The notes beneath the pieces are model-generated. The model searched no databases. It worked only from the letters and a program-made list of their open reading frames with translations, and was not told the DNA's origin. A stretch of 27,234 bases of DNA, filler included, from an uncultured virus (IMG/VR IMGVR_UViG_2049941000_000284) (Duplodnaviria; Heunggongvirae; Uroviricota; Caudoviricetes). It is 13 parts of one record of this genome, joined end to end, with 100 filler letters (N's around TTAATTAATTAA, not from the genome) between each part and the next. Parts side by side here need not be neighbours in the genome. Positions count along the whole stretch, not along the records: positions 1 to 435 come from IMGVR_UViG_2049941000_000284; 12 more parts are not named here. One strand, given 5' to 3'. Below, piece after piece: positions 324 through 26,084 of this stretch (positions are counted from its first letter, which is position 1; each line of letters opens with the position of its first letter). A program made the position numbers and the translations under genes.

Positions 324-425
324 TCCTCCCATGAATTAAAAATAATATGCTCGTCTTTCCGAGCCGTCAAGTAGTCTTTCCTACTAGCCAATCATTTTAA
401 CCTTACGGGAGGAGCGGTTAAAATG
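324..425 (-). promoter_or_regulatory. Candidate structured 5' leader RNA of the primase gene
   Basis: 10-bp hairpin at 393-425 whose loop (UCCUCCCGU) is complementary to the RBS; two 5-bp hairpins with identical GAAAGA loops at 370-385 and 349-364. Confidence 0.55.
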
Positions 426-5163: not shown

Positions 5164-6362
5164 TGAGGTATGGGCTCGGATACTGTGGAAGTAAAAACGG
5201 CATAGCGGAATGGGTTTGTGATTATATTCCGAACAGCCGTAATTTTTACGATTTATTTGCCGGCGGTTGCGCTATAACCCATTGCTCGATGTTACACAAG
5301 AAGTCGGAAAATTATCTGATAAATGACATAAGCGATGTAGTAGAATTGTTCTATGACGCTGTTATGGGAAAATATAAAAATGAAACCCGGTGGATAAGTC
5401 GGGAAGATTTTTATAATTTTAAAGATAAAGACCCATATATTCGTTATTGCTGGAGTTTTGGTAACCGTGGCCTAGAATATATGTACAGCCTTGAGGTTGN
5501 NNNNNNNNNNNNNNNNNNNNNNNNNNNNNNNNNNNNNNNNNNNNNNNNNNNNNNNNNNNNNNNNNNNNNNNNNNNNNNNNNNNNNNNNNNNNNNNNNNNN
5601 NNNNNNNNNNNNNNNNNNNNNNNNNNNNNNNNNNNNNNNNNNNNNNNNNNNNNNNNNNNNNNNNNNNNNNNNNNNNNNNNNNNNNNNNNNNNNNNNNNNN
5701 NNNNNNNNNNNNNNNNNNNNNNNNNNNNNNNNNNNNNNNNNNNNNNNNNNNNNNNNNNNNNNNNNNNNNNNNNNNNNNNNNNNNNNNNNNNNNNNNNNNN
5801 NNNNNNNNNNNNNNNNNNNNNNNNNNNNNNNNNNNNNNNNNNNNNNNNNNNNNNNNNNNNNNNNNNNGCTTGCAGGATCTTCTACAAAATCTAGAAAGTC
5901 TAGAAAGGCTACAAAGTCTAGAAAGGCTAGAAAGGCTAGAAAAGCTAGAAAAGCTAGAAAAGCTAGAAAGGCTTACACTTTCCGTTGGCTCATACAAAGA
6001 CGTGAAGATAAAACCTGACTCGGTGATTTATTGTGATATTCCTTATCGCGGTACGGCTGAATATATCGGCGGGGTTTATTATGATGAGGTTNNNNNNNNN
6101 NTACTGCAAAGAAATCCTGCATAGTTCGCTTGATGTGTTAGAGTTGCAGAAGAACCTGACTGAACGAATTGAGCGTAATTCTGAAGAACTTCGTAACTAT
6201 TTACTTACGGGGCTTAAAAACGCGGGTAAACGGTCGAGTGAAGTTGATAAATACCTAGGTACTAACGGCATGGCCGGTCATTACTTCGGTAAAAGTCAGT
6301 GGGAGTTCCCGACTCGTGAGGTGTATATAAAGCTTCAGAGTTTCCTTGACTTACCGATTGAA
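5163..6362 (+). CDS. DNA adenine methyltransferase, D12/Dam class (gapped; 6102-6362 is probably an internal piece)
   Basis: Y.GSK, motif I DLFAGG, INDI, catalytic motif IV VIYCDIPY; fragment MAGHYFGKSQWEFPT resembles an insert seen in phage MTases. Confidence 0.85.
5882..5971 (+). repeat. Ten tandem 9-bp units CTA(G/C)AAA(A/G)(G/T) encoding L(E/Q)(S/R/K/N)
   Basis: ctacaaaat ctagaaagt ctagaaagg ctacaaagt ctagaaagg ctagaaagg ctagaaaag x3 ctagaaagg. Confidence 0.95.
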
Positions 6363-8983: not shown

Positions 8984-9521
8984 CTTGAAAACTTGAATAA
9001 AAAAGATAACGAGCCTGAACTCCCTAAAATCTTGCAGAGAATCTTTAATAACTGGATTGATACAAAAGGCCTTGAGTTGTGCCGTGATATGGACGAAGTG
9101 ACAGTAAAAGAACTCCGTCGTGTGCTTGGTGCTTCTATTGCAGAAGGTGACGGCTTACAGGTGCAGATTAAAAAAATGATTGCTGCAAGTGATGAATTAT
9201 TCTTTGATATGAGCAAGACAAGAGCCGAACTTATCGCAAGGACTGAAAGCTGTACAACAATCAACGCGGGAAGTACAGAACTTTATAAAGCAGAAGGAAT
9301 AACTATGAAAGAATGGATTTCTGTACAGGACGACAGAACCCGTGACGCTCATTTAGTTATGGACGGCGTAGTTATCCCGATTGAAGATAAGTTTGAAGTA
9401 CCTGCAACAAGTCAGAGTGAAGGTGCATTTATGGACNNNNNNNNNNCCGGGCGACGCAAGCGCACCAGCGGGACAGGTTGTTAACTGCCGTTGTGTTACG
9501 GCCCCGTTTGTTAAATTTTAA
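8984..9521 (+). CDS. Head morphogenesis protein (MuF / SPP1 gp7-like), 5'-partial
   Basis: RAELIARTE, KEWISVQDDRTRDAH..MDG; after the gap PGDASAPAGQVVNCRC. Confidence 0.9.
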
Positions 9522-22680: not shown

Positions 22681-23375
22681 TCTGCTTGTCAATACCTGAG
22701 TTTTTCTCTTCTGTAATTAAATTACGAAGATTAAACTTAAAATCTTCTGTTACTGGAGTAAAACGCAATGGTGACATACAAGGCGCAACAATACTAAGAG
22801 CAGGTACATTGCCATTCTGTTCTGCAGGGACATCTTTAAGAATGTGCGTTTCGAGTTCTTCTTTAGTCCAGCCGTCTTTGATTGCGTCGGCTAAGTCCCA
22901 CCCCTGTTCTACATCACTAGGCGGATAAATTAAATGTACTTTAGTGTCAGGAAGTAATTTATTTATTTTTTCGATTGCCTGTCTGCCTGGAGTGTCTGCG
23001 TCAAACGCAAAATAAACTTCACGACCGATTAAACCTGATAAATCAGAGAGTCCGATAGATTTTGCACCACCGTACCAACCGACAACTACCCATTCAGTTA
23101 ATATGTCCTTAATTATTCCCGCTACTTTCTGCCCTTCAACAAGTAATACTCTTGCGTTAGGTTTTTCAATAAGTGAACGTGAATTATAAAGCGGATATTT
23201 AACCCCGTGCAATGCTTTACATCGCCATTCATAATTTTTTGCGTTACTGAATAATGTATAAGGGTAGTCTGTTTTAGAATCGCCCTTCATTATGCGTACT
23301 ACCCACATAACCGGAAGCCAGTTATCGCCATGTTTTAATTCCAACGGCCAGCGTGCTATTTCATTTTTCTGAATG
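22681..23375 (-). CDS. Primase Toprim domain fragment
   Basis: YPLYN, VLLVEGQKVA, WYGGA, FDADTPG, QGWDLADA. Confidence 0.88.
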
Positions 23376-25102: not shown

Positions 25103-25982
25103 ATAACGCAACTTGCCGTTTTCTACCTTGCTGAGCTGTTTAAGTCCGCAATCTTCCATTGCCCGTAAGCATGACTTTTGACTTATGCGCATTTTATAGC
25201 CATAATCCCAGCACAACTTTTCAACATCTGCCTGAAGTAACTCATCGCCAACACTCGCCGCTGGTCTTGAACTGTCGCCGTAAAGCCACAACTTAATAAC
25301 TTTACAACAAGCTTCATAATCAGAATATGTTATCAAGGCTTCGTTTCTAAGTTCTTCCATAAGTGCTTCAAGTTCTGGACTAAACCTTGTAGCCTCTCGT
25401 ACTTCTGTTGTCGTCATTGTGTCTGCAAGCCGTGTGTAATGAGCATGAAGCCGTCTTATAAAAGTCTGCCCTTCTTCGCTTGAACAGAAGTCCATATCAA
25501 CCGATTTTATTTTAACAGGGTCCCAACGGCGGGTACNNNNNNNNNNTTGGGAACTGTTGTTCAACATACTTAATATCAACGTTTACGCTTGTCTGTGAAA
25601 TAAAAGATTTTACCTGTTCTACATCATCGGCATTTTTCATTACTTTCATTTCACCGATTTCTACAAGCAATTTACCGCGTACCTTTTTTACTGTTTCGGC
25701 TGCTCCGAACTTTGCTTTAAGTCCTGAACCTAAGTCAGTATAAAGGTCGTTATCCATAGCAAGCCAGCGTACAAGGGTAGTTTTACCGATACCCTGTCCA
25801 CCTGCAAGAATAGGTACAATATCGTTTTCCATTAAGCCGTAATATGAGCCGTCCTCGTGACGTCTAGTTCCGTTAATATGACCGTGCATTTTAAGAAAAA
25901 ACTTATGCCATAATTCTTTATAGCATTTAATTGTGTTTTCTTTTCGCTCTTCATAATCTTCTATATCTTCGCCGTCATAACG
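25103..25982 (-). CDS. VapE/VirE-type P-loop helicase domain (primase-helicase), gapped
   Basis: Walker A ILAGGQGIGKTT, Walker B VEIGEM, VKSFISQT, TRRWDPV. Confidence 0.85.
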
Positions 25983-26084
25983 AANNNNNNNNNNNNNNNN
26001 NNNNNNNNNNNNNNNNNNNNNNNNNNNNTTAATTAATTAANNNNNNNNNNNNNNNNNNNNNNNNNNNNNNNNNNNNNNNNNNNN

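Follow-up and report, generated by a model that had tools for sequence, protein, structure and literature searches.

Genes and features at the junction

The window, i.e. the whole stretch of DNA that was analysed (positions 1-27234), consists of 45 short fragments with runs of N between them, and the fragment that carries the junction described here covers positions 1-435. Because the fragments are joined by N runs, ORFs running across these runs are artefacts. Pieces of the primase-helicase were found at 1-316, 22681-23375 and 25103-25984, and the order of the fragments thus differs from the order in the genome. A separate region at 5880-5960 (plus strand) contains short tandem 9-nt repeats resembling CTAGAAAAG inside an apparent coding fragment. 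The sequencing runs containing the stretch are mostly bovine gut metagenomes, and a 68% homologue of the primase-helicase is located in a Treponema MAG, which makes a rumen phage with Treponema as its host likely. In RNA runs, a fraction of 0.04-0.27 of the words of the stretch was present, and the single labelled RNA run that was compared spans positions 200-355 only.

On the minus strand, positions 2-316 encode the N-terminal 105 codons of a primase-helicase with a GTG start at 316. The primase assignment had been made in a first-pass annotation of the sequence and is borne out by homologues, Pfam and PHROGs. There are 18 longer homologues, the best of which is 98% identical and 797 aa long (full length is roughly 800 aa), and they carry VapE-like/DUF5906 helicase domains according to Pfam and PHROGs. 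The Shine-Dalgarno (SD) region of this gene, AUGGGAGGA, was recognized from its sequence at 324-332 (minus strand). The upstream gene is visible in the window only as its 3' end at 435-418 (minus strand), since the fragment stops at 435; the codons read E-D-I-P-F-stop, with the TAA at 420-418, and the gene was assigned as ssb by synteny. In L125 and L126, the closest two loci for which upstream DNA was available (primase 72% identical), a 140-aa SSB (PF00436) ends in EDIPF 95 and 100 nt ahead of the primase start, and the gap between ssb stop and primase in the window is 101 nt. From this synteny, the EDIPF end and the similar gap, we conclude that the folded RNA sits at the ssb to primase-helicase junction. 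It is not in a 5' leader, as had been assumed in the first-pass annotation: the 5' arm of its stem overlaps the last codons and the stop of ssb.

The stem in question belongs to the stop-codon hairpin H1 (393-425, minus strand), which is supported by folding and by related contigs. Its 10-bp stem (arms 425-416 and 402-393) and 13-nt loop were found as originally described; H1 covers the ssb stop and has an energy of about -9 to -10.6 kcal/mol. Its loop contains the anti-SD tract UCCUCCCGU (405-413, minus strand), for which duplex energy and related contigs speak. The pairing of this loop with the primase SD was confirmed as well: positions 413-405 can form 9 bp, including one G-U, with positions 332-324. 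When the sequence upstream was dinucleotide-shuffled 2000 times, the duplex energy of -16.3 kcal/mol was matched in 0.15% of the cases (p about 0.0015), i.e. the complementarity of anti-SD and SD exceeds chance expectation. The tract lies 4 nt past the ssb stop in the window and about 4 and 1 nt past it in two divergent related contigs. A mini-ORF (ATG ATT GGC TAG, 384-395, minus strand), which may be a chance occurrence, starts within the 3' arm of H1; its frame is apparently kept in related contigs, and L126 has another short ATG-started frame.

Between H1 and the SD, the two hairpins of the first-pass annotation were found again on the minus strand. Hairpin A (385-370; 370-390 with its UGGCU 5' flank) fits the family consensus described below, and hairpin B (364-349; 348-369 if the 5' flank UGACG and the A on the 3' side are included) is supported by matches to a 17-mer and by changes in a related contig. 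Both have 5-bp stems and GAAAGA loops, and they are the only two 5-bp GAAAGA hairpins in the window; one 4-bp case at 9307 is due to chance.

Conservation of the junction

Contigs from 4 of 24 listed runs were compared over positions 200-435. One contig spans these positions, and the five of its seven changes that were listed all fall within primase codons. The conservation of H1 and the anti-SD tract was read from two single contigs (depth 2.4 and 6.3) of one run, with 30-letter loose ends compared by eye. In the contig of depth 2.4, where single changes could be errors, hairpin B has two compensatory double changes (363/350 and 361/352) and a GACAGA instead of a GAAAGA loop, loop A has a 2-base insertion, and the SD is unchanged. 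H1 is a perfect 10-bp stem in the by-eye loose end of this contig, with AU/AU replacing CC/GG, and UCCUCCC is present in the loop while the remaining loop bases are different. The contig of depth 6.3 retains 8 bp of H1 together with UCCUCCC; 601 other letters follow hairpin B, and the SD lies beyond the visible part. The compensatory changes in H1 and the constancy of UCCUCCC amid varying flanks support selection on H1 and its pyrimidine tract within the close clade. In record 3 of run X13, the primase codons are separated from hairpin B by 601 letters instead of 63; this insert behind the hairpins is probably an additional gene with some 170 codons.

As regards conservation of the loop-SD pairing in homologues, which the first-pass annotation had named as a check, the close contigs keep the anti-SD and a compensated stem, and both the tract and H1 are absent from the two 72% homologues L125 and L126. 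These two loci retain the twin hairpins, with different stems and the loops GAUAGA, GACAGA or GAAAGA, and share a GGGAGGA SD. In their minimum-energy folds the SD is paired with the final ssb codons, the textbook arrangement, at a level not beyond chance (p 0.11 and 0.46). A search for further loci directed at ssb yielded 4 distant ones, and homologues from a genome collection were missing their 5' end. The twin hairpins are not present in the 10 more distant loci examined (45-52% identity). In 8 of these 10 (4 distinct sequences), the primase start overlaps an upstream stop codon; one of the other two has a 14-nt gap, and one is without an upstream ORF in the 172 nt available. Distant loci thus couple primase by stop/start overlap, which supports coupling as the selected outcome.

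In viral contigs, a pattern of twin loops with this primase SD downstream gave no matches. The pattern of stop codon and anti-SD resulted in 11 matches, three of which (one sequence) are a gene ending in DDIPF followed by the tract; no twin hairpins occur within the 150 nt shown for these three. The other eight are not ssb ends, and in several of them a long opposite-strand ORF begins. In L256, L259 and L261, an unrelated phage gene has a DDIPF-stop directly followed by TCCTCCC, a hint that anti-SD tracts may recur behind stops of this type. A downstream SD is present at 23 other phage loci as well; none of these has a significant anti-SD ahead of its hairpins, and a general association between the hairpin motif and anti-SD pairing was rejected on these grounds.

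The twin hairpins as a phage RNA element

The 17-mer of hairpin B has exact matches in at least 118 viral-contig stretches with unrelated contexts. A pattern for the tandem arrangement was found in at least 109 stretches, not all of them true twins, with 72 distinct cores among the matches listed. For an analysis of covariation, the window was aligned with 45 twins chosen by their loops. In this alignment, 93.8% of the cells pair, and double changes occur at 5 of the 8 pairs; no shuffled or slid control attains the observed pairing. That the other three pairs are invariant is mostly due to the search pattern, which specified them. Where the search left the stem free, i.e. at three positions, 143 of 165 cells are paired vs 99 +/- 4 in shuffled sequences, and the free stem cells contain G-U 21 times vs A-C 4 times. 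Additional hairpin copies nearby lie on the same strand in 33 cases and on the opposite strand in none. The internal covariation pointed out in the first-pass annotation does indicate a selected structure; it is not specific to this locus, as the twins belong to a widespread phage motif.

In the consensus of the hairpin, U-G-R-C-N is followed by a stem of 5 bp with a G-A-N-A-G-A loop in which insertions are tolerated, an A, and a G-poor tail; both hairpins of the window agree with it. The N of the loop is A in 29, C in 14 and G in 12 of 55 cases. Among copies for which the search did not demand the GRC flank, this flank is enriched (18 of 29 and 25 of 35). Enough context was available for 135 distinct loci: a tRNA is found within 40 nt in 27 of them (in 19 of these at 4-7 nt), an ORF led by an SD within 80 nt in 23, and neither in 85. 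The 62 ORFs neighbouring motif loci include repressors, ssb and replication genes, and also portal, capsid and tail genes. In these alignments, UGRC-N-stem-GANAGA behaves as, and in our judgement is, a widespread, covarying and strand-specific phage RNA element. It has no match in Rfam: Rfam 15 gave no gathering-score match in the window, the search with positions 1-435 returned weak hits to miRNA models only (E 0.35-8.3), and 20 twin loci returned tRNAs only. We did not find a description of the hairpin in a literature search aimed at it. It is not described in the main-text passages of PMC5737381, PMC10085705 and PMC10690425, of which the supplements of PMC5737381 and PMC10690425 might list the motif among candidates. 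The hairpin probably marks boundaries between RNA units and is read by a conserved factor.

A blastn search against cultured phages gave short, non-significant matches only (E 0.4-2). One of these weak matches, upon inspection, is a true twin in Vibrio phage 1.012.O (L262, about 2490-2535), where it precedes a tRNA-like sequence and is not on the strand of the structural genes but on the other one; numerous sister phages have a match in this place too. An origin of the twin in the host chromosome was rejected, as it was found in 1 of 301 Treponema-family genomes, which equals the reversed-pattern control. The copy in a Treponema-family genome (L269, 685-726) directly follows a gene for an 80-aa HTH protein, within an early region of prophage-like character. 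Finally, CGGAAAGAC in hairpin B (353-361, minus strand) occurs unchanged within the 23S rRNA segment 2054-2068 that the abstract of PMC12887398 gives. Since the third loop base of the motif varies, this identity may be coincidental.

Predicted folding, proposed coupling and alternatives

When growing prefixes of the transcript are folded, H1 is the first structure to form. The SD-closed nested fold is predicted at -32.0 kcal/mol vs -24.2 kcal/mol for the SD-free fold, and a rough estimate for an SD-closed pseudoknot is -32 to -39 kcal/mol, depending on the penalty term. Occlusion of the SD is predicted to be the default state in either topology, about 7-8 kcal/mol under the SD-free fold. Hairpins A and B are present in the open and closed folds alike.

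Based on these predictions, we propose the following sequence of events. H1 would fold over the ssb stop during transcription and expose UCCUCCC, which would then capture the emerging primase SD in a pseudoknot or a nested long-range helix, so that primase would by default not be made. On terminating at the ssb stop, a ribosome would melt H1, cover the start of the anti-SD and free the SD briefly, allowing low-level synthesis of primase-helicase tied to that of SSB. The twin hairpins would serve to fold up the 60 nt that separate anti-SD and SD. The ssb stop inside the stem was overlooked in the first-pass annotation, and this stop codon offers a more direct trigger. That long-range SD occlusion couples primase translation to ribosomes finishing ssb is our preferred reading, which we put forward tentatively, as possible but short of probable. 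The sign of the coupling is not borne out by the energy model. With nested-only folding, opening of the SD costs 5.8 kcal/mol when nothing is blocked, 12.3 and 7.7 kcal/mol when the RNA is blocked up to 5 and 9 nt past the stop, and 5.2 kcal/mol, i.e. barely less than unblocked, at 12 nt past the stop. The higher costs at 5 and 9 nt arise because H1 stops competing, and coupling could thus be negative or absent. Positive coupling appears somewhat more likely to us than negative coupling. We infer the ribosome as the trigger, the positive sign and the role of the hairpins as boundaries. The best reading of the junction is one of two separable parts, i.e. widespread twin hairpins and a clade-specific device that would couple translation.

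In the first-pass annotation, a protein bound to the twin hairpins was thought to govern sequestration of the SD. The part of this model that stands is the occlusion of the SD, as the predicted ground state; control by the twin hairpins is not supported, as L125 and L126 have twins without an anti-SD hairpin and an upstream anti-SD was significant at none of the 23 other loci. The hairpins also stand whether the fold is open or closed, and this speaks against a switch operated by a protein bound to them. A conserved loop and 5' flank over variable stems do resemble a protein site, and a binder could loosen the nested closed fold through its weakly paired flanks (without the lower helix, the energy changes from -32.0 to -27.4 kcal/mol). 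Taking both sides together, we regard such a protein switch as quite unlikely. Removal of the anti-SD would have a different consequence: primase would be made from RNAs with 5' ends downstream of 405, generated by cleavage near the twins or by an internal promoter, and read-through from ssb would be silent. A sigma70-like promoter match (TTGACG-17-TATTAT, 10/12; 342-370, minus strand), which matters for this reading only, would be kept in similar form in the most divergent related contig (by eye), and the position of hairpins 4-7 nt ahead of tRNA 5' ends in 19 of the 135 loci is what a mark of processing boundaries would look like. However, the -10 element was not seen in L125 or L126, and the region is AT-rich. 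A -10 match of at least 4/6 occurs in only 14 of 152 motif loci, and the motif was rejected as a general promoter on this basis. We consider it unlikely, if less so than the protein switch, that primase is made from such shortened RNAs.

The pyrimidine tract itself might have another meaning, as GGGAGGAG (407-414, plus strand) and the ATG at 423-425 could open a short ORF that runs antisense within ssb; the complementarity to the primase SD would then stem from two SDs facing away from each other. The spacing from SD to ATG would be plausible for such a start in the two related contigs as well as in the window, and most matches to similar patterns are, as mentioned above, not ssb ends and in several cases are starts of long opposite-strand ORFs. 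The equivalent frame in L125 and L126, however, is without ATG or SD and is closed after about 38 codons, and an antisense ORF leaves the non-coding 3' arm of H1 and its compensatory change unexplained. It is the reading to which we give the least credence. Control might also be exerted on transcription, with hairpin B and its A/U tail as a weak terminator or pause site, or the pair as a put/nut-like antitermination element, which would set the ratio of SSB to primase and make the anti-SD secondary. In a simple scan, hairpin B scored as terminator-like with an interrupted A/U tail, a U run follows in L125, at least 5 U are found in the next 9 nt for 28% of the family copies vs 9% of the background, and one Treponema-family copy follows the HTH gene. 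Against this, such a U tract is missing in 72% of the copies, termination does not require a conserved loop, and the motif neighbours portal, capsid and tRNA genes besides early genes. There is also no boxA at the window locus: the best match to an 8-base core is 5/8 in the window and 6/8 in L125 and L126. Matches of at least 7/8 occur in 6 of 152 family loci vs 1.4 expected; this slight surplus may be due to copies that are related to each other. Transcription control as the main function thus seems as improbable to us as the protein switch; alongside the SD occlusion that we prefer, the hairpins could also contribute weak termination or antitermination.

Relation to known systems and significance

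The boxB site of lambda is a stem with a five-base purine loop. The first-pass annotation had compared the twin hairpins with it, an analogy that is not supported as class membership: the hexaloop has a variable position, its sequence is common to unrelated phages, and the best boxA is the partial match given above. By its six-base loop and the missing boxA, the element is not a lambda nut site. As boxB is described in PMC8632103, both are short stems with a purine-rich loop in phage RNA and likely protein-bound, but the present element has a GANAGA hexaloop that tolerates insertions, a 5' UGRC flank and a tandem arrangement, and it is often located before tRNAs. PMC8632103 also deals with the HK022 put RNA, which comprises about 65 nt and has RNA polymerase as its target. 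It is likewise a double-hairpin element in a phage transcript; the unit described here, which can be likened to it by description only, has about 21 nt and is single or paired.

For the junction as a whole, the closest parallels are found in translational coupling. An upstream ribosome that melts a long-range structure is an established class of coupling according to passages of PMC6728339. Like the infC-rpmI-rplT and rplJL systems of E. coli described there, the phage junction has a co-directional gene pair, a predicted long-range helix or pseudoknot over the downstream initiation region, and an element located where the upstream ribosome passes. Unlike in these passages, where the element lies inside the ORF, the phage anti-SD lies just past the stop in a hairpin loop, and the 101-nt gap is bridged by two motif hairpins. 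In its anatomy, the junction resembles UTNI coupling, with an upstream co-directional ORF and a predicted pairing over the initiation region. In repY-repZ of IncI/IncB plasmids, initiation requires a pseudoknot, which an antisense RNA blocks, according to PMC8053102. There, too, a loop pairs with downstream RNA and a replication gene is coupled to an upstream ORF. The partner of the phage loop, however, is the SD itself, so pairing should repress. With the operator of T4 gene 32, as covered in PMC535899 and PMC10690425, the junction shares a predicted pseudoknot beside a phage ssb gene that bears on translation; that operator lies upstream and serves autoregulation, whereas the element described here is found at the ssb stop and is directed at the gene that follows.

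From compensatory changes and conserved complementarity, we conclude that the junction is a real, selected RNA structure. Long-range occlusion of an SD is already known for coupling genes, and what is new is the arrangement, with the anti-SD in a loop over the upstream stop codon. The near-identical 21-nt hairpin in phages of very different hosts is the more surprising part. Its presence within a structure that would control a protein-coding gene provides a simple read-out, and the compensatory natural variants supply controls. It is conceivable, although we think it rather unlikely, that UGRC-stem-GANAGA is a cross-phylum signal that is read by a conserved host factor and cuts or marks phage transcripts as separate units, and that in this clade a tandem pair within an anti-SD/SD pseudoknot, by being recognized or cleaved and together with ssb termination, switches primase-helicase on. 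If this were true, the junction would be a ready-made protein-coding reporter for the function of the hairpin and for its binder.
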